The translations under genes and the position numbers were made by a program. Shown in pieces: positions 5,054 to 12,152 of a DNA stretch of 64,000 nt. The first letter of the stretch is position 1. Each line of letters begins with the position of its first letter. Under the pieces are notes generated by a model, which searched no databases, was not told where the DNA came from, and worked only from the letters and a program-made list of their open reading frames with translations. The DNA is from Candidatus Nomurabacteria bacterium (GTDB taxonomy: Bacteria > Patescibacteriota > Saccharimonadia > Saccharimonadales > HK-STAS-PATE-42), in NCBI GenBank assembly GCA_023898665.1, contig CP060233.1, positions 146,801 through 210,800 on the forward strand, read 5' to 3'.

Positions 5054-5383
5054 TTAAGCGGCTATTTCTGGGTTGTCTATAACTACTTTTTCCTCGGGTA
5101 GTCTAGATGCTAACTTTTCTTTCTGTTGTTCAAGCTCCCCTGATGATACTGCTGTGTTATAGGCTTCAGTCATCGGCTCCATTTGACCTGGTTTTTTAAG
5201 GTTACAGCCAATACACCCCTCACAGTCGGCAGCTTTTGCTAACTCTTGGGCAGTTCTTGACTCACCCTTAGTAATTGATTCAAGCTTACTAGAGCCAATT
5301 ATAACCGGAGTTGATAATTTGCTAAACGCTAATAGCATTGCCTCCTGACATGAAATTGGTTTTTGTGACTTAACTTCTTCCAT
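5054..5383 (-). CDS. hypothetical small protein with a CxxCxxC motif
   Basis: 109-aa ORF containing DCEGCIGCNLKKPG. TGATACAAT lies 9 nt upstream of the ATG. Confidence 0.5.
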   Translation of the reverse strand: MEEVKSQKPISCQEAMLLAFSKLSTPVIIGSSKLESITKGESRTAQELAKAADCEGCIGCNLKKPGQMEPMTEAYNTAVSSGELEQQKEKLASRLPEEKVVIDNPEIAA

Positions 5384-5405
5384 ATGCCGAGTATTGTATC
5401 ATACT

Positions 5406-6221
5406 CTAGCTGTTTTTGTCAATGAGATGCAAGAGGTTCTCGTATAGATAGCTTATGGTTAGAGGTCCAACTCCGCCAATACTTGGAGTTATTTTTATGT
5501 CTAATTTGGAATTATATACTTCTGGATCTAGATCTCCTTTTAAGACTCCCCCATCTTCTGAAGTCCCGGCATCGATGATGACTTGGTTATCTTTTATCAT
5601 TTCGGATTTTATGAGCCCAGGTGAGCCGGTAGCTGTAATGATTATGTCTGAATTCTGTATAAATTCTTTTAGTTCTTCTGGTGAATTTGTCTCATCTAGA
5701 GTCTTAACTGATAGGTTTTGATCTTTTAGGGTTTTTAATAAAGGTAGGCCAACTAGTTTACCTTGGCCAATGATTAAGATATCTTTATCTTTTAGATCGA
5801 TATTGTAGCCGGCCAGAAGCCATAAGATTGCCCCGACTGTAGCGGGCTCCACTAAACTGTTTTTGTTTAAACCGTCAACGTCTTTTTCTGGTGGAATCAA
5901 GTTAGTCAGCTCGTCAGTTAAAGTTGGGTCTTCGAGTGGCAGTTGCAGGATAATCCCGTGCACTGATTTGTTTTTTGCGAGCTCTTTTATCTTCTCTTCT
6001 GCTACACTCTCAACAATCTGGTGTATATCAACTGTTATTCCTAACTCTTCTCCTCTAGCTTTTTTTAGCTCTAAATATTTTTGGCTAGGTTTATGATTTG
6101 GGTTTGTATTGATGATGGCAAGCTTTGGTTGGATGCTTTTGCTTTGGACTAAGCCTCTAATTTGTTTAGCCTGCCTTTCGGAGATGTATTCTACTAGTTC
6201 ACTGCCTTTTAAAAACTTCAT
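5406..6221 (-). CDS. folD: bifunctional methylenetetrahydrofolate dehydrogenase/cyclohydrolase
   Basis: Contains ILQLPL, DVDGL, GQGKLVGLPL and GGVGPLT blocks. Length 271 aa. Confidence 0.9.
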   Translation of the reverse strand: MKFLKGSELVEYISERQAKQIRGLVQSKSIQPKLAIINTNPNHKPSQKYLELKKARGEELGITVDIHQIVESVAEEKIKELAKNKSVHGIILQLPLEDPTLTDELTNLIPPEKDVDGLNKNSLVEPATVGAILWLLAGYNIDLKDKDILIIGQGKLVGLPLLKTLKDQNLSVKTLDETNSPEELKEFIQNSDIIITATGSPGLIKSEMIKDNQVIIDAGTSEDGGVLKGDLDPEVYNSKLDIKITPSIGGVGPLTISYLYENLLHLIDKNS

Positions 6222-6295
6222 GTATCTGTTATTTTAACAGAGAAAGCGTTACAATACGCCATGTAAGACAGAATTTAATAAGGAGATTCACCGAT

Positions 6296-6718
6296 ATGGC
6301 AAGAAGAATTAAGTCTAAGACTACTACTAAATCTGAAACTGCTGTGCAGAGAGCGGCTAGATTGACCAAGCTTAAGGAGGCCAGGGCGACTAAATTAACT
6401 GTTGGTTTTGTTGATTTTATTCGCGAGCAAGGTGTGGTTGGTTTGGCGGTAGGCCTTGCTATGGGTGCAGCGGCTGGAGCGGCAGTTAAAGCTATTGTAG
6501 ACGGCTTTGTAAGTCCGGTTATTGGATTTATCTTAGGTGGGTCAACTCTTGCTAATAAAGTTTGGAATACTGGCTTAGAGCGTGGTGGCAAAGAGCTTGT
6601 TATTGCATGGGGGTCTGCTGCAAATGCCGTAGTTACCCTATTGGCGACTGGTCTAGTTATATACTTCGTAGTTATGGGGCTAAAGTTGAATCGTCTCGAT
6701 AAGAAAAAAGAAAAATAA
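6296..6718 (+). CDS. mscL: large-conductance mechanosensitive channel
   Basis: FVDFIREQGVVGLAVGLAMGAAAGAAVKAIVDGFVSPVIG is a typical MscL TM1 region. An AAGGAG Shine-Dalgarno sequence lies upstream. Confidence 0.9.
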   Translation: MARRIKSKTTTKSETAVQRAARLTKLKEARATKLTVGFVDFIREQGVVGLAVGLAMGAAAGAAVKAIVDGFVSPVIGFILGGSTLANKVWNTGLERGGKELVIAWGSAANAVVTLLATGLVIYFVVMGLKLNRLDKKKEK

Positions 6719-6735
6719 TATATTACTTCAGTAGC

Positions 6736-7545
6736 CTATATTGGGATATCTTTTTTTCTAAAATAGAAAAGACCAATAAGGGTACTTATAATGAATGTAC
6801 CTAACAAAAAGAGGAGGCTTGAAGACTCAAGGCTGCCCGTAGTAACTACTCTTCCTGGGTTAAAATAATGGAAGACTGAGAAGTATTTAAGTTTATCTAA
6901 GTTAGTCTCTAAACTTGCTATTAAGTATAAGACGTATGATATAAGCAGGACCCCACTAATAGCCGCAGTAGATTTTCTGGCATCGTTTGCTATTGCGGAG
7001 GAGAGCATACCAAGGCCTAACACCGCCAATCCAAATAATAGCCCTAAGATTGCAATCATAACAGCATCTGAATTGCTAAGGTTGTACTTAAAGAGGGCCG
7101 CTAACGGGATAACTAAGACTTGGGAAATTATTACGAAAAATATTATTCCAATTGTTCCAGATACTAGTCTAGTTAGGTACAGTTCTTTTCTAGAGATGGG
7201 CATAGCTAAAAGATGGGTAATAGTTTTGTCTTGAACTCCTTGGGCGATGGCGTAACTGCTATAAGATACTGCCAGCATTATTAGCATTAATGGCCAAGTA
7301 AAGCCAAAGTGCTTTGAAGCCAGATAGCCTATTAAGGTCTGTGGTCCGGTGGTTATATTAAAGGCCGATATAACGCCTTTAGGTAAGGTACTTATCAACT
7401 TATCGTAATCAGCTGAAGATTTTTGGATAGCTGGAAAGGTGGCAATATAAAGAACAAGAAATCCAAAACCAATTAAGCAGAAAGTTGCCCAGCGCACGCG
7501 GTGATCTTTGATAGATTCTTTTAGAAGTTGTAGGTTTAGTCTCAT
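6736..7545 (-). CDS. ABC-2 type transporter permease
   Basis: 269-aa polytopic membrane ORF whose start overlaps the stop of the upstream ABC ATPase gene. Confidence 0.7.
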   Translation of the reverse strand: MRLNLQLLKESIKDHRVRWATFCLIGFGFLVLYIATFPAIQKSSADYDKLISTLPKGVISAFNITTGPQTLIGYLASKHFGFTWPLMLIMLAVSYSSYAIAQGVQDKTITHLLAMPISRKELYLTRLVSGTIGIIFFVIISQVLVIPLAALFKYNLSNSDAVMIAILGLLFGLAVLGLGMLSSAIANDARKSTAAISGVLLISYVLYLIASLETNLDKLKYFSVFHYFNPGRVVTTGSLESSSLLFLLGTFIISTLIGLFYFRKKDIPI

Positions 7546-8426
7546 GAGTATATCTCCTTAAAAATATCTTCTAAAGTTGGGCTAGAGATACTGAGCTGTT
7601 GGACGTTGTATTTAACAAGAATTTCTAAGAGTTTGTTTAGATCTCCTCTGAGTAAAAAACTAGCACTATTTATGGTAGTGGTTAAATCCTCTATATGTAA
7701 ACTGTTTAATTCTTTGGGCACTGACTTTTTGAAGGTTACTTTAATTGAGTGAGAGCCCACTTTTTTAAGTTTTGAAAGGTCGGTGTCGTCGATAATTTTT
7801 CCATCTTTTATGATTGCGACTTTACTGCATAGCTCTTCGACTTCGTATAAATCATGAGAAGAAAGTAGAATCGTCCCTCCCCGGGCTTGATAGTCACGCA
7901 GAAGTTGATGAAGAGTTGATCTAAAGAGTGGGTCTAGTCCTCTTGTGGGCTCATCTAGAATAAGTAGCATTGGATTGTGGATTAGGGCAAGTATTATTGC
8001 CAGTTTTTGATGATTGCCAGTTGAAAGTGCGCCAACTTTTCTGTCTCCATCAATTGAAAGTAATTTCTTTAGTTCTGTAGACCTTTTGGAATCAACTTTA
8101 AATATATGTTCTGCAAATTTGATGTGCCGATCGACGGTCCAGTTTGGGTATAGATTTGGTTCTGCTGGCACATAGCCGATTAGATTTTTGAGTTCTGTGC
8201 TGGAGGCTTCTTTATTCGCGTCTTTACCAAAAATGGTTACACTCCCCTTGTTTGGACGAATTGTGTCCGTTATACAGCGGATAGTTGTTGACTTGCCAGC
8301 ACCGTTTGGGCCTAAGAAACCGAAGATCTCACCCTTACTAATTTTTAAAGAGACATCCTCTAATGCTTTTTGCTTGCCAAAAAACTTAGTGACGTTATTA
8401 ATATCTAGTACAACTGGGCTGCTCAT
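7542..8426 (-). CDS. ABC transporter ATP-binding protein
   Basis: Walker A GPNGAGKST, ABC signature LSTGNHQKL, Walker B LLILDEP. Confidence 0.9.
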   Translation of the reverse strand: MSSPVVLDINNVTKFFGKQKALEDVSLKISKGEIFGFLGPNGAGKSTTIRCITDTIRPNKGSVTIFGKDANKEASSTELKNLIGYVPAEPNLYPNWTVDRHIKFAEHIFKVDSKRSTELKKLLSIDGDRKVGALSTGNHQKLAIILALIHNPMLLILDEPTRGLDPLFRSTLHQLLRDYQARGGTILLSSHDLYEVEELCSKVAIIKDGKIIDDTDLSKLKKVGSHSIKVTFKKSVPKELNSLHIEDLTTTINSASFLLRGDLNKLLEILVKYNVQQLSISSPTLEDIFKEIYS

Positions 8427-8461
8427 CTAAGATAAGATTAGCATAAAGAGTATACATGAGG

Positions 8462-8818
8462 CTATCTGAGCTGACTTAATCTTGTCTGAAGGATTTCTTT
8501 TAGGAGTTGTTCTGGAAATGGCTCGTTAAGTTTATACTTTAGGGTGCCTTTGCCTGATTCGTAGGGCTTTAATATTTCTTTTAAATTTTCTATTGGACCT
8601 GGAGTTGGGAAGATGCTTAAGTGATCTTTAAAAGCTCCAAAGTAGATCAGTGGCTTACCCTTATATTTAAATGCCGGCATGCCATAAGATATTGATTCTT
8701 CTGCTTCTGGCACTTCTTTTCTAACGATCTCGCGCAGTCTTTGGAGCTCATTTCTTTCTTCATTATCTAAATACTTTAGATATTCATCAACTGATGCGGC
8801 TCTTTTATCTTTATTCAT
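8462..8818 (-). CDS. DUF1801/YdhG-like domain protein
   Basis: The SYGMPAFKYKGKPLIYFGAFKDHLSIFP pattern is typical of YdhG-like proteins. Confidence 0.65.
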   Translation of the reverse strand: MNKDKRAASVDEYLKYLDNEERNELQRLREIVRKEVPEAEESISYGMPAFKYKGKPLIYFGAFKDHLSIFPTPGPIENLKEILKPYESGKGTLKYKLNEPFPEQLLKEILQTRLSQLR

Positions 8819-8830
8819 AGTGCAATCTTA

Positions 8831-9265
8831 TCAATCTAGTTTTGCAAAAGCGAATTCAAGTGACTTTTGTAGAACAGTTGCAATTAGTACTACTGCTAGG
8901 ATGCCAAAAAAGCCATGGATATTAAGATTGTTGCCAAAGATTAAATCAATCAGTCCAACGAAAACAAACTTAGAGCTAAACATAACAAACCAAGTGATAA
9001 AACCGTAAAAAAGTTTTACCTTAATATCTTCTGACTTCTTTAAATCTTTTATTAATCTCTTTTTAATTTTAAGCACTAAAAAAGTTAAGATACTTAAAAC
9101 AAGTGACCCTAAAAAGATGGTTGAAAAGCTTTTGGCCACGACGATATTTGTGTAGTCATTAAAGAATCCTAATACTGAAGCGTAAACTAAAGCCCCCAGG
9201 CTAATGTCCTTAAAGGTTAGTTGTTTAGTAGTAAAGCGAGGTGTTATTTCTTGTTGTTTTGGCAT
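8831..9265 (-). CDS. hypothetical integral membrane protein
   Basis: 144-aa ORF with about four hydrophobic helices. Confidence 0.5.
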   Translation of the reverse strand: MPKQQEITPRFTTKQLTFKDISLGALVYASVLGFFNDYTNIVVAKSFSTIFLGSLVLSILTFLVLKIKKRLIKDLKKSEDIKVKLFYGFITWFVMFSSKFVFVGLIDLIFGNNLNIHGFFGILAVVLIATVLQKSLEFAFAKLD

Positions 9266-9272
9266 ATTAATG

Positions 9273-9560
9273 TTATCTAAAAAAACTGATTACAATTAAT
9301 ATCATAGCTACTCCACCAAGGGTTTTTCTAAAATTGCTTGAGCCTCGTGTGAGCTCAAGGTACGCCCATGTAAATAGGAGAGCTGTGGCAAGATCTTGAA
9401 TATTATTCTTAAGTTGAATATCTTTTATAAATAATGAAAAGAGTTCGACTAGTAGCCAACCGGTTAAGGGGATGTTTGGGAGTTGAGCAATCGTAATCTT
9501 GCTCTCATCATTTTGGCAGAAACTAACTATTTGAGATTTTATGTTGCTTTTGTTCATCAT
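9273..9560 (-). CDS. hypothetical small membrane protein
   Basis: 95-aa ORF with hydrophobic segments. TGTTATTAT lies directly upstream of an ATGATG start. Confidence 0.45.
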   Translation of the reverse strand: MMNKSNIKSQIVSFCQNDESKITIAQLPNIPLTGWLLVELFSLFIKDIQLKNNIQDLATALLFTWAYLELTRGSSNFRKTLGGVAMILIVISFFR

Positions 9561-9571
9561 TTAATAATAAC

Positions 9572-9589
9572 AAAAGACCCTCCCGGGTC
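9572..9589 (-). terminator. intrinsic terminator (minus strand) following the tRNA-end repeat copy 1
   Basis: Minus strand reads GACCC-GGGA-GGGTC followed by TTTT. Confidence 0.6.
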
Positions 9590-9608
9590 TTACGCCGTTT
9601 ACGTTAGG

Positions 9609-9618
9609 TGGAGGGCCA
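9609..9618 (-). repeat. copy of the tRNA-Lys 3' end (TGGCCCTCCA on the minus strand), att-like, copy 1
   Basis: Plus strand TGGAGGGCCA is identical to 11104-11113. It is followed by ATTGT, shared with copies 2 and 3. Confidence 0.7.
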
Positions 9619-9636
9619 TTGTGGAGCTAGTTGCAA

Positions 9637-9816
9637 CTAAGATTCCTCAGGCTTATGTAATGCCCTCAGCTTCTCAAAAAGCTCCCTAACCTCTTCTCTT
9701 TCGGCTCCAATAAGTGCATTGAACTCATTATCATCAAGTTCGTTATCTATATTTAGGAGACAATTGCAAAGAATCCTTAACTCATCGTTTGTGAGCTTGA
9801 TTGTATATTCGCTCAT
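9637..9816 (-). CDS. hypothetical 59-aa protein (below the ORF-track length cutoff)
   Basis: My translation is MSEYTIKLTNDELRILCNCLLNIDNELDDNEFNALIGAEREEVRELFEKLRALHKPEES. TGTTATAAT lies 7 nt upstream of the ATG, and a terminator lies downstream. Confidence 0.5.
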   Translation of the reverse strand: MSEYTIKLTNDELRILCNCLLNIDNELDDNEFNALIGAEREEVRELFEKLRALHKPEES

Positions 9817-9831
9817 GTACGAGATTATAAC

Positions 9832-9854
9832 AAAAAGACGCTTTCGCGTCTTTT
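9832..9854 (-). terminator. intrinsic (bidirectional) terminator
   Basis: AAAAA-GACGC-tttc-GCGTC-TTTT. Confidence 0.7.
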
Positions 9855-9867
9855 AAACATAAGCATA

Positions 9868-9878
9868 TTGGAGGGCCA
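9868..9878 (-). repeat. copy of the tRNA-Lys 3' end, att-like, copy 2
   Basis: Plus strand TTGGAGGGCCA is identical to 11103-11113. It is followed by ATCGT. Confidence 0.7.
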
Positions 9879-9887
9879 TCGTCTACA

Positions 9888-10301
9888 TTATAGCGACTGA
9901 GACTCGGCACTCCGAGTCGCTTCACCATGTAATATAAAATCTAATCTTGCATTTGTATACTGTTCCATGCCTGAGACCTCCGTGATGTCCATTTCATATA
10001 GTCCAACGTGTTCAGTTTTTATAGATGCTTCTCCGAAGACCTTTGTAAATAAATCGAGGCTTTCTCTACTTATGATGGAAGCAGTTATGCGTTGAATTCT
10101 TCTCTCCACGGCCACTTCCCTTGCTTTTTGAAGCACAGCCTGGCCAATGCCATTCCTGCGTATAACACTGCTTACAAAAACACTCGATACCGACATTCTT
10201 TCACCATCCAAAGAAAAAGTGAGCAGAGCATTAGCATGTTCGTGACGTAGCCTCACACTTCTTTCATCTACCACATCGAGAACAATATCAAATTCTGCCA
10301 T
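9888..10301 (-). CDS. GNAT family N-acetyltransferase
   Basis: RRNGIGQAVLQKAREVA matches the acetyl-CoA-binding R/Q-x-x-G-x-G/A motif. The ORF track starts at a GTG at 10307; I prefer the ATG at 10301, which lies 6 nt after TGGTATCAT. Confidence 0.7.
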   Translation of the reverse strand: MAEFDIVLDVVDERSVRLRHEHANALLTFSLDGERMSVSSVFVSSVIRRNGIGQAVLQKAREVAVERRIQRITASIISRESLDLFTKVFGEASIKTEHVGLYEMDITEVSGMEQYTNARLDFILHGEATRSAESQSL

Positions 10302-10367
10302 AAACACATGATACCAAAACAGAAGTGAATCACTTAGAGCATGCGAGACTAGAACTTTTTAACAGAT

Positions 10368-10395
10368 TGAAAATGCTCCTCAGATTGAGAAGCAT
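10368..10395 (-). terminator. intrinsic terminator (minus strand)
   Basis: Minus strand reads AATGCTTCTC-aatct-GAGGAGCATT followed by TTC. The stem is 9-10 bp. Confidence 0.55.
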
Positions 10396-10427
10396 TCGCG
10401 TCGCAGAAAACGTATCCGATATTCAAA

Positions 10428-10438
10428 TTGGAGGACCA
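10428..10438 (-). repeat. copy of the tRNA-Lys 3' end, att-like, copy 3 (one mismatch)
   Basis: Plus strand TTGGAGGACCA versus TTGGAGGGCCA in the tRNA. It is followed by ATTGT. Confidence 0.65.
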
Positions 10439-10455
10439 TTGTATTACTTATTGAA

Positions 10456-10971
10456 CTAGAGCTTAGCAGTGTAAATTAACTTCCCAGGAGGCGGCATGGT
10501 AAAAACCGATAATGTATGCAGAGCAAAATCACCTTCGATCTTTAGCTTAGATAATTCTTCCATCTCTTGATCTGCTAATGGTGACTTACTTCTCAGTGTG
10601 CAATGTGGCATGTATGCGAAGTTGCTATCCTGGAACTTTATTCCCGATTCAACAAATCTTTGATGCAATGATCGTACTGATGTCTCATCTTTTAATTTCA
10701 TAACAACTATGTCTGTGCCTGGGAACCTATGCACTTTATCAAAAGAGACGGTTATTGGTGGCGTGCTAGCTGCTATTTCGTCGATTGTTTTAAATAATTC
10801 GTCTGGGTCCTGGTCTTGGGCAATGCAACCAACGCCGCTTGAACCAACAATAGTTATCTCGGTAGGCATAGATGCTTGAAAATTATCCCCCTGCTCAGCT
10901 CTAACTTTACGTATTGTGCTCGCTATTGGCTCGGGAAGCTCCAAAACAATGTAGGTATCTTGATCAAACAT
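10456..10971 (-). CDS. 2H phosphoesterase-fold protein (LigT / 2'-5' RNA ligase-like), tentative
   Basis: The second HxTx motif is present (PHCTLRS). The first is ExTx (TEITIVG). The N-terminus YIVLELPEPIASTIRKVR resembles the LigT start. TGGTATGAT lies 6 nt upstream of the ATG. Confidence 0.4.
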   Translation of the reverse strand: MFDQDTYIVLELPEPIASTIRKVRAEQGDNFQASMPTEITIVGSSGVGCIAQDQDPDELFKTIDEIAASTPPITVSFDKVHRFPGTDIVVMKLKDETSVRSLHQRFVESGIKFQDSNFAYMPHCTLRSKSPLADQEMEELSKLKIEGDFALHTLSVFTMPPPGKLIYTAKL

Positions 10972-11040
10972 AGTATTATCATACCAAAAAAGAGGTAGAT
11001 TGATTAGGGCAAACGAGACTCTAACTAGACTAACAGATAC

Positions 11041-11067
11041 AAAAACACCTTCAGTAATTGAAAGGTG
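11041..11067 (-). terminator. intrinsic terminator downstream of tRNA-Lys
   Basis: Minus strand reads CACCTT-tcaattactg-AAGGTG followed by TTTTT. Confidence 0.7.
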
Positions 11068-11103
11068 TTAGGTGCGAACCAATTTTGATCTGATAAATAC
11101 TTT

Positions 11104-11180
11104 TGGAGGGCCAGGCGGGACTCGAACCCGCGACATTCTGCTTAAGAGGCAGACGCTCTAACCAGCTGAGCTACTGGCCC
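11104..11180 (-). tRNA. tRNA-Lys (anticodon CTT), CCA encoded
   Basis: The reverse complement GGGCCAGTAGCTCAGCTGGTTAGAGCGTCTGCCTCTTAAGCAGAATGTCGCGGGTTCGAGTCCCGCCTGGCCCTCCA folds as a 77-nt cloverleaf. It has a 7-bp acceptor stem, a GTTCGAGTC T-loop and the anticodon loop CTCTTAA. Confidence 0.9.
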
Positions 11181-11252
11181 GTATGCCTTTATATTCTACC
11201 TACTTTTCGCTGTTATTTCAAGGTCAAAAAAGCTATAATTAAGTATAGAATC

Positions 11253-12152
11253 ATGAAGATAATCAAAAAAAATATTGAAGGTGAAGAACCTACTTTTGAA
11301 AGGGTGGATACTTTTGTAGCTCAAAATTGTGATGGTAAGTTTAGTCGGTCTTCTGTTGGGAAGCTAATATCTCAGGGGAGGGTTAAATTAAATGGCGAAG
11401 TTGTAAAATCTAAGGCTCTAAAGTTGACGAATGGAGATGTGGTTGAGGTATATTATCAAGATCCAGTTGCGGATGAAGATCTAAGGATTTTGTATGAGAG
11501 CGATGATGAGATCGTTATCAGTAAACCGGCCGGTATGCTCTCTCACGCCAAGGGTCCGATTAGTGGTGAAGTTAATGTGGCGGACTGGTTACAGCCCAAG
11601 ACCACTGATCTTAATGTTCAGAGAAGTGGGATTGTTCATCGTTTGGATAGAGCTACAAGTGGGGTGATGATCTTGGCTAAGAATCCGGAGTCTAAAAGCT
11701 GGCTGATGAGGCAATTTAGTGATAGGAATGTACACAAAAAGTACTTGGCTATTATCGAAGGTGTGCCAGATCAGAAGAAGTTTAGAATTGACATGCCAAT
11801 TGGCAGAAACCCTAAAAAGCTAACTACTTTCTATGTGACGGAGAGTGGACGGGAGGCTAAGACAGATGTTGAGGTTTTGAGTACAAATGGAAAAGAGAGT
11901 CTGGTATTACTCTCTCCAAAAACTGGACGGACTCATCAACTTAGGGTACATATGTGGGCTAATGGCTGGCCGATCTTAGGTGATCCTTTTTATAATGAAG
12001 TTTTTAAGGACGGTCAGGAGTTGATGCTGCATGCGAATAGTTTGACTATCCAGACTAGTGATAAGGAATGGCGAGTGTTTAGTGCTCCTATTCCCTCTTA
12101 CTTTTTGGATAAGCTTGTTGAACTTAACCTTAAATTACCTGATTTGAATTAG
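11253..12152 (+). CDS. rluD: RluA-family 23S rRNA pseudouridine synthase with N-terminal S4 domain (RluD-like)
   Basis: Contains HRLDRATSGVMILAKN (catalytic Asp motif) and RTHQLRVH. The ORF-track start at 11103 overlaps the tRNA; the ATG at 11253 (MKIIKKNIEG) is the plausible start. Confidence 0.8.
   Translation: MKIIKKNIEGEEPTFERVDTFVAQNCDGKFSRSSVGKLISQGRVKLNGEVVKSKALKLTNGDVVEVYYQDPVADEDLRILYESDDEIVISKPAGMLSHAKGPISGEVNVADWLQPKTTDLNVQRSGIVHRLDRATSGVMILAKNPESKSWLMRQFSDRNVHKKYLAIIEGVPDQKKFRIDMPIGRNPKKLTTFYVTESGREAKTDVEVLSTNGKESLVLLSPKTGRTHQLRVHMWANGWPILGDPFYNEVFKDGQELMLHANSLTIQTSDKEWRVFSAPIPSYFLDKLVELNLKLPDLN

Follow-up and report, generated by a model that had tools for sequence, protein, structure and literature searches.

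A tandem array of single-gene units behind a tRNA-Lys gene of a Saccharimonadia genome as a probable integron-like cassette array

Positions 146,801 to 210,800 of contig CP060233.1 from the Candidatus Nomurabacteria assembly GCA_023898665.1 (64,000 nucleotides; hereafter, the window) contain a tandem series of small genes that lies directly behind a tRNA-Lys(CUU) gene and in which the 3′ end of this tRNA is repeated at gene ends. This region is probably a cassette array of integron-like design, which site-specific recombination has assembled at the 3′ end of tRNA-Lys. The reading is carried by the anatomy of the units, by the conservation of the element that closes them and its link to tRNA-Lys, and by the varying gene content of the same site in relatives. 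It is also carried by two breakpoints that lie exactly at the core of the repeat, together with one recombinase-bearing insert at the site.

The docking gene, tRNA-Lys(CUU), lies at 11104..11180 on the minus strand. ARAGORN and Rfam (74.9 bits) agreed on it with an earlier interpretation made from the letters alone (hereafter, the sequence-only reading), and it was the sole tRNA that the two programs found in the 64 kb. Its final 11 nt, CTGGCCCTCCA (11104-11114, minus strand), are the proposed recombination core. The plus-strand image of the tRNA 3′ end, TGGAGGGCCA, occurs exactly at 9609, 9869 and 11104 and with one mismatch at 10429, and the rest of the window holds a single further match with one mismatch. 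The threefold recurrence of the tRNA end downstream of the gene, to which the sequence-only reading had drawn attention, exceeds chance: the 14-mer TGGAGGRCCATYGT has three occurrences without mismatch in the window and none in 100 shuffles. Since the tRNA of the window has C and not A at position -10, the identity between it and the cassette copies is TGGCCCTCCA. The displaced copies were also said to share a stretch beyond the core. Such a stretch exists, but it extends leftward from the core by about 20 nt instead of the 5 nt proposed, and the whole makes up an end element of 30-31 nt that includes a stop codon. By nhmmer, no end element was found past 9609 or anywhere else in the window, so that within the window the motif is confined to the tRNA-Lys locus.

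The units are laid out on the minus strand, which is that of the tRNA and of all features in this paragraph. Cassette 1 starts with a 5′ module (10972..11103) consisting of a terminator hairpin (11044-11069) with a T-run, a conserved leader of a kind that we call type B (10978-11026) and an extended -10 box TGGTATGAT (10978-10986), from which the ATG is 6 nt further on. Its open reading frame (ORF; 10456..10971) encodes a 2H/LigT-type phosphoesterase of 171 amino acids (aa; Pfam 2_5_RNA_ligase2, 5.5e-13) and runs into end element 1, TAGTTCAATAAGTAATACAATGGTCCTCCA (10429..10458), whose first 3 nt are the stop codon TAG and which gave only a weak profile match (nhmmer, E=2.5). Cassette 2 consists of a 5′ module (10302..10428) with a hairpin (10371-10397), a U-run, a type B leader (10308-10356) and the -10 box TATCAT (10308-10313) 6 nt ahead of the ATG, then of an ORF for a 137-aa GNAT acetyltransferase (9888..10301; Pfam Acetyltransf_1, 2.6e-5), which had no homologues outside the same strain, and of end element 2, ...GCTATAATGTAGACGATGGCCCTCCA (9869..9898; nhmmer E=0.007), which contains the stop codon TAA. 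Cassette 3 has a shorter 5′ module (9817..9868) with a box ATATGCTTATG just behind the core, a hairpin (9833-9854) with a T-run, and a predicted promoter TGTTATAAT whose -10 hexamer (9824-9829) is followed by the ATG 7 nt on. Its 59-aa orphan ORF (9637..9816) has no Pfam match and, among 5.8 billion proteins, matched itself alone; end element 3, TAGTTGCAACTAGCTCCACAATGGCCCTCCA (9609..9639; nhmmer E=4e-8), is of the consensus type and includes a TAG stop. The three products are thus those that had been proposed, and three cassettes are indeed bounded by the repeats, but a fourth unit beyond the third repeat had been overlooked. The 5′ module of this unit (9561..9608), with a hairpin (9574-9591), a T-run and the -10 box TATTAT (9564-9569), is similar to the sequence directly behind the tRNA-Lys genes of two related loci (L001 and L004), and its ORF (9273..9557) encodes a small membrane protein of 94 aa. 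Beyond it lie ORFs without further elements (8831-9265, and 8462-8818 with a DUF1801 domain), which may be either parts of a multi-gene last unit or older cassettes with decayed ends.

Some observations on assembly bear on these junctions. Same-strain assemblies from several samples end at cassette junctions (~10336-10376, ~9570 and ~9560-9640; contigs L068, L069, L180, L153 and L184-L186), and in one sample, SRR12358675, the stretch between the 2H and GNAT cassettes is where two contigs overlap by ~30 nt. Heterogeneity of the population, or repeats at the junctions, could account for such breaks.

Relatives of the locus were retrieved through neighboring proteins and not through the motif (L002, L004, L071, L072 and L197). 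In all of them tRNA-Lys is present, other genes stand behind it, and the gene ends carry the same end element. The RluD-like protein encoded next to the tRNA is 68-80% identical to proteins of Saccharibacteria metagenome-assembled genomes (MAGs), and four MAGs keep RluD and tRNA-Lys but have different genes behind the tRNA, with cargo such as a NUDIX protein; a cytidine deaminase, a P-loop kinase and a NUDIX protein; or a YgjV-like membrane protein and an ASCH-like protein. Gene sets at tRNA-Lys thus differ between relatives, with the repeat at gene boundaries, where it stands behind stop codons (for example, TAGTTGCAATAGCCTCCACGATGGCCCTCCA in L002 and TAGTTGAAGTAAGTAGTACAATGGCCCTCCA in L004). 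Homologues of the 2H protein elsewhere are 74-89% identical to that of the window, and their gene is the first of the array in the window, the second of the four cassettes behind tRNA-Lys in L071, the third in L072 and the fourth in L197. As to the RluD-like gene itself (11103-12152, plus strand), its longest mechanical ORF begins at a TTG within the sequence antisense to the tRNA; the true start is the ATG at 11253, which gives a protein of 299 aa, and an identical protein is present in public assemblies.

Two pairs of loci show breakpoints exactly at the repeat, which the sequence-only reading had proposed to look for in related genomes. L099 and L141 are identical over 154 nt up to ...ATGGCCCTCCA and then unrelated, one of them entering another cassette and the other the terminal flank of the array. 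The second pair, L197 and L200, represents the locus of one strain in two versions whose flanks are 99.8% and 100% identical. L197 has the empty site, tRNA-Lys...TGGCCCTCCA|ATAACGCTTACGC..., followed by a 59-aa cassette. In L200 this point is occupied by an insert of 6,666 bp with the 11-bp direct repeat TGGCCCTCCAA on both sides; its left end is at tRNA-Lys, and its right end, ...CAGTTGCGATAGCATCTACGATGGCCCTCCA, is a cassette-end element. The insert starts with a gene for a large serine recombinase of 554 aa (Pfam Resolvase, 3e-20, with Recombinase and Zn_ribbon_recom; PHROG 95 integrase, 3e-68), which reads toward and into the tRNA, and it contains two internal cassette junctions of its own. 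The final 14 codons of this gene (L200 1421-1462, ..WRASRDSNPGHPA) correspond to the antisense strand of the tRNA-Lys 3′ end, so that its reading frame is completed across the attachment site only once the element is integrated. In L124, a C-terminal remnant of this recombinase (60% identical) adjoins an array and a tRNA-Lys fragment of 31 nt. Taken together, the relatives and the core-exact breakpoints support the serial, site-specific insertion at the tRNA-Lys 3′ end that had been put forward, although the movement of a single cassette was not seen.

Glutamine tRNA genes show the same logic. Next to tRNA-Gln(UUG) lies, in the same arrangement, a distant large serine recombinase of 22% identity, which abuts the 3′ end of the tRNA (L076-L078; for example, in L077 the tRNA is at 5229-5303 and the recombinase at 5384-6874), and this locus carries a 2H cassette with a decayed end element. 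At other tRNA-Gln loci, the units of L189, L188 and L194 are bounded by ATCCCCAGCCA, which repeats the last 11 nt of tRNA-Gln(CUG), and L193 has tRNA-Gln(CUG) itself (2464-2537) exactly where these three have the copy. A 2H module that is 100% identical and retains the Lys-type end element stands in at least three different neighborhoods.

The end element has the consensus (T)AGTTGCAAyAGnnnCnACrATGGCCCTCCA over 30-31 nt. Its last 7-11 nt, from CCCTCCA to ATGGCCCTCCA, copy the tRNA-Lys 3′ end, and the stop codon of the ORF is usually inside the element. Among 114 distinct copies, positions that were not part of the search pattern were conserved as well (A at -34 in 99/114, G at -28 and A at -20 in 101/114 each, T at -16 in 80/114). 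The same 114 copies yielded no consensus secondary structure (alifold energy 0.0) and no covarying column pairs, and we therefore take the element to be read as sequence and not as an attC-like hairpin. Where the acceptor stem differs, as in L002, the identity between tRNA and cassette shrinks to the 7 nt CCCTCCA, which places the crossover within or just past these nucleotides. Additionally, a near-palindromic box, TAACGCTTATGC, stands behind 29/114 copies and behind many tRNA-Lys genes in both orientations, either as CCATAA-CGC-TTATGC, which overlaps the CCA, or inverted as AGCATAAGCGTTATGA (for example, L002 4762-4750 and L197 3842-3856). This post-core box is possibly a half-site for a recombinase or for another DNA-binding protein.

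The distribution of the element was surveyed in metagenomes with the pattern TTGCAA-N8-AC-N-ATGGCCCTCCA, in which 19 bases are specified, so that chance matches are essentially not expected. It matched 98 metagenome contigs. In contrast to these, viral contigs gave 0 matches; the 59 matches of ACAATGGCCCTCCA in viral contigs lacked the extended motif and were all due to chance, as were both matches of the core combined with the post-core box. A profile built from the pattern sites was run on the 98 loci (496 kb), with a cut-off of E<=0.01 for calling multiple elements. All 43 loci with at least two elements had them co-oriented, and in each of the 44 loci containing tRNA-Lys (CUU or UUU) the tRNA was 5′ of the elements on the same strand, which shows that the motif is tied to tRNA-Lys and is not simply a common one. 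The 141 intervals between elements had a median length of 782 bp (259-4128 bp), 60% of them contained exactly one ORF, and 172 ORFs were co-oriented with the elements against 45 that were not. At looser nhmmer cut-offs (E<=10 and E<=0.5), 13-14 copies were counted within 12.9 kb of L111. The cargo is accessory in kind and highly diverse, with 90 Pfam families matched by 81 proteins, among them P-loop kinases, NUDIX proteins, histidine phosphatases, methyltransferases, 2H, CYTH and GNAT proteins, and the toxin-antitoxin pairs YafQ/RelB and YoeB. A link of the cargo to RNA or tRNA ends, suggested by the sequence-only reading, found no support, as no such bias was seen.

Some array loci also showed tRNA-derived sequences of other kinds. 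In L137 (5294-5367) and L141 (~1377-1446), a second complete or nearly complete tRNA-Lys lies in the middle of the array with cassettes on both sides. A composite of ~165-190 nt, absent from the window, stands at the far end of many arrays or right behind tRNA-Lys. It was located at L071 9870-10036(+), L090 4588-4752(-) and 6463-6626(-), L080 900-1066(+), L141 5403-5569(-), L156 4645-4809(-), L128 2600-2765(-) and L117 4770-4930(+), and also in L152, L122, L105, L098 and L146. It consists of a degenerate inverted 3′ half of tRNA-Lys, AAAA and a forward 3′ part of tRNA-Lys, in whose T-loop an insert of ~95 nt is lodged. In 13 sequences this insert forms a three-hairpin module with 35 predicted pairs, 24 of which have compensatory double changes, and the same insert occurs within a sequence resembling tRNA-Arg(UCG). 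A tRNA or tmRNA was considered for the convergent tRNA-like sequence at the ends of arrays, but it is neither and has no Rfam match; it is this composite pseudo-tRNA with a structured insert. Since cassettes again succeed its ..CCCTCCA end, the composite appears to be a second docking site, and it is a candidate for an undescribed structured RNA or a T-loop-inserting element.

The units also share a 5′ architecture. The layout of hairpin with T-run, -10 box, ATG and ORF that the sequence-only reading had proposed was found in all units of the window by folding and inspection. All four post-core segments fold as a hairpin followed by a U-run (z-scores from -1.6 to -3.4), and boxes of the form TAnnnT (TATGAT 10978-10983, TATCAT 10308-10313, TATAAT 9824-9829 and TATTAT 9564-9569) end 6-7 nt ahead of each ATG, two of them with a TGn extension. 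The upstream regions of the 2H and GNAT genes are alignable, as claimed, over 49 nt with 73% identity, and a 15-mer of the type B leader, TCTGTTAAAAAGTTC, was found again in unrelated metagenome cassettes. Moreover, the module ahead of the 59-aa ORF is nearly identical to that ahead of the 2H gene of L071, and the junction modules thus represent a shared family that precedes unrelated genes. Of the distinct first ORFs of metagenome cassettes, 60/81 are preceded by a TAnnnT box whose end is 4-10 nt (mode 6) from the ATG, with a TGn extension in 42 of the 60, and only 5/81 have a Shine-Dalgarno-like motif. For comparison, non-cassette genes of the window have a leaderless-type promoter (TAnnnT 5-8 nt before the start) in 15/54 cases, against 10% of random positions, and a Shine-Dalgarno-like motif in only 12/54. 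Leaderless-type promoters are thus widespread in the host genome, so the cassettes use host-style signals, nearly each having its own. As judged from these signals, each unit is predicted to be transcriptionally autonomous.

On the basis of these features, the array may be pictured as follows. Each unit would consist of a post-core spacer, an intrinsic terminator, an extended -10 box, usually one ORF, and the end element. The terminator would insulate the unit from upstream sequence, and the -10 box is placed as if transcription started at or beside the ATG, giving a leaderless mRNA. A free cassette would be a circle with one attP-like site composed of end element, core and 5′ module, in which the end element would act as the element-side arm and the tRNA-derived tail as the crossover core. 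A site-specific recombinase would recombine this circle with a core, either the one that ends the tRNA or any one already in the array; the insertion would rebuild the tRNA and displace older cassettes outward, and recombination between two direct cores would excise the stretch between them. As many cassettes carry a post-core box like that of the tRNA, each insertion may regenerate the docking site, and insertion and excision would then both be attP x attB reactions. The enzyme would be encoded outside the array and most likely acts in trans. The leading candidate is the family of large serine recombinases found in related elements at the same site, and the presence of such a gene at the same docking site in a related strain fits action in trans. 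That a large serine recombinase moves the small cassettes is plausible, but we hold this part somewhat short of probable.

Several observations weigh against a recombination-built array. No pair of strains was found in which a single small cassette is present in one and absent from the other between otherwise identical sequences, and the array is identical in all 12 contigs of the window's strain, which come from various samples. A recombinase stands beside an array in only 2 of ~100 lineages (L200 and L124). Since the right boundary of the L200 insert may come from a methyltransferase cassette that was present beforehand, the evidence linking this recombinase to the end element is circumstantial. 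In the window itself no recombinase or remnant of one was found, in line with the sequence-only reading: Pfam searches of ten unannotated ORFs of integrase size, phmmer, and tblastn with the two real serine recombinases as queries were all negative. Some ends are irregular as well. The difference between L004 and L072 has a clean left end, but its right end is inside an ORF, so that it was rejected as a clean cassette indel, and homology of the NUDIX cassette common to L101 and L148 is lost within the ORF; ordinary deletions and indels therefore also shape these regions. Additionally, most metagenome loci were chosen using part of the motif, which inflates its apparent conservation, and the dyad symmetry that one would expect of a recombinase site is weak: the axis about the core GGCC ranks first, but with only 0.36-0.41 against a background of 0.24.

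Other recombinase searches gave similar results. No tyrosine recombinase was found by Pfam in the scanned ORFs of the window, nor among ~1500 ORFs of the window and the array loci by phmmer with an approximate XerD sequence, a search of limited sensitivity: with approximate XerD and Hin queries, known serine recombinases reached only E~0.3. The candidates that phmmer did return proved on Pfam check to be a topoisomerase, a Mur ligase and MurB. Viral contigs contained no relatives of the serine recombinase.

An array of scars is one alternative, and we regard it as unlikely. Full-size elements with integrases would have entered tRNA-Lys and been deleted down to single genes and repeats. It is well established, for example, from tycheposons (10.1101/2020.12.28.424599), that serial integration at tRNA genes leaves partial copies of the tRNA behind, a recombinase-bearing element of 6.67 kb does occupy the site in L200 with a decayed one in L124, and the irregular indel ends would fit. 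However, random decay would not leave the same tidy unit of terminator, promoter and one ORF more than 100 times, with a conserved non-tRNA segment of 20 nt abutting the core in those units, and nearly the whole ~0.5 Mb of array loci lacks recombinase remnants. Moreover, the L200 element itself holds internal cassette junctions.

To exchange by homologous recombination we assign the same low probability. According to this alternative, natural transformation replaces genes between conserved junctions that serve as anchors (30 nt plus modules of 45-130 nt), as in the minimal mobile elements of Neisseria. Saccharibacteria are naturally transformable, the junction modules are conserved between unrelated cassettes, and recombinase genes are seldom nearby, all of which would suit it. 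It leaves unexplained, though, why the repeat ends exactly at the CCA of the tRNA and why arrays stand at tRNA-Lys only; the ends in L197/L200 share 11 bp, too short for RecA-type exchange, and in L002 the tRNA-cassette identity is merely 7 nt.

A role at the RNA level is still less credible, and we consider it very improbable. The element would then imitate the 3′ end of tRNA-Lys as a signal in the 3′ untranslated region, with a function in processing, stability or CCA-related recognition, and would be conserved for this function; its clustering at tRNA-Lys would be secondary. Its place ahead of the terminator, its CCA end and its orientation with the mRNAs are what such a signal would have. 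It does not explain breakpoints exactly at the core, it lacks a complementary 5′ acceptor strand, as well as consensus structure or covariation in the 114 copies, and it occurs nowhere else in the 64 kb. Finally, decayed tRNA-Lys duplicates or chance repeats, which the identity of the last 10-11 nt might suggest, can be dismissed, as the shuffles and an Rfam covariance scan of 8400-11300 at E<=10, which matched the intact tRNA alone and hence no residual tRNA body at the displaced copies, refute them, and as the sequence left of the core is unlike a T-arm and conserved as a motif of its own.

If the region is a cassette array built by recombination at tRNA-Lys, its meaning reaches beyond this genome. 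Patescibacteria have tiny genomes with few recognized mobile elements, which raises the question of how they acquire accessory genes; a docking site present in many lineages, with up to a dozen or more single-gene cassettes, would be a concrete, testable answer, and the platform could be the main route of gene gain in ultra-reduced genomes. Tentatively, and with a weight that stays below that given to the array itself, we suggest that Saccharibacteria and their relatives have a distinct platform, in which a serine recombinase acting in trans stacks self-insulating, self-expressing single-gene cassettes at tRNA-Lys through a double-stranded, sequence-defined site, with sister systems at tRNA-Gln. 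This would be a second independent origin of integron-like logic, with another enzyme class and a site read as sequence. In practice, the 30-nt element could serve as a probe for the accessory gene pool of uncultured Saccharibacteria in metagenomes, and a serine recombinase with a defined tRNA-end target, together with compact terminator-promoter modules, could provide tools for the newly tractable Saccharibacteria.

Among known systems, integrons, including super-integrons and the integrase-less clusters of attC sites lacking integrases (CALIN), are the closest in layout. They likewise consist of co-oriented arrays of mostly single-ORF cassettes with a family-specific end signal and one fixed docking site, their cargo is diverse and accessory with toxin-antitoxin pairs and many acetyltransferases, and arrays without an adjacent integrase exist there too. 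In contrast to integrons, which dock at attI, the array described here docks at the 3′ end of a tRNA. The integron attC site is an R''-L''/L'-R' hairpin, whereas the signal here is a primary sequence of 30 nt without a hairpin, in which no GTTRRRY/RYYYAAC pair was visible by inspection. No counterpart of the tyrosine recombinase IntI was seen, and the candidate enzyme is a large serine recombinase. Integron cassettes are promoterless and depend on the common promoter Pc, whereas 60/81 first ORFs here are predicted to have their own -10 box with a terminator before it. Thus, of four integron features considered, the co-oriented array of single-ORF units was found, and IntI, the attC structure and promoterless cassettes were not.

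The pdif modules of Acinetobacter plasmids are bounded by 28-bp sites of 11-6-11 structure in alternating orientation, which XerC/XerD recombine in trans. They are likewise small gene modules between short sites with a recombinase that the module does not encode, but the repeats here are direct, tRNA-derived and chromosomal, and lack the 11-6-11 symmetry.

The SCC (staphylococcal cassette chromosome) elements of staphylococci are multi-gene units of kilobases that target rlmH by means of the large serine recombinases CcrAB/CcrC. They, too, insert at the very 3′ terminus of a conserved housekeeping gene, with short direct repeats and tandem composites, and their recombinase-less forms (pseudo-SCC) are thought to be moved in trans by the large serine recombinase of a sister element. 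As in SCC, a precise empty and occupied site with a short identical core was found (L197/L200). A large serine recombinase with the Resolvase, Recombinase and Zn ribbon domains is encoded at the site in the related strain L200 and left as a remnant in L124; in the window, tblastn found none. SCC units, unlike those described here, enter rlmH and not a tRNA, carry many genes over kilobases and not single ones, lack a conserved terminator-promoter module per gene and are not known to line up as 10 or more single-gene units.

Tycheposons span several kilobases and encode a tyrosine recombinase and replication genes of their own (10.1101/2020.12.28.424599). They and other tRNA-linked islands likewise integrate serially beside a tRNA, with newer elements pushing older ones outward and with partial tRNA copies left between units, in streamlined genomes without other mobile elements. 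Direct repeats of the tRNA 3′ end bound the units here as well, but there is no integrase per unit; the units are of ~0.3-1 kb with a single gene and no recombinase, and they share a common non-tRNA end motif. In agreement with the sequence-only reading, no prior description of this architecture was found in full-text literature of incomplete coverage. The array thus appears as kin to both site-specific cassette arrays and tRNA-anchored islands, and there is a substantial chance that it deserves a class of its own.

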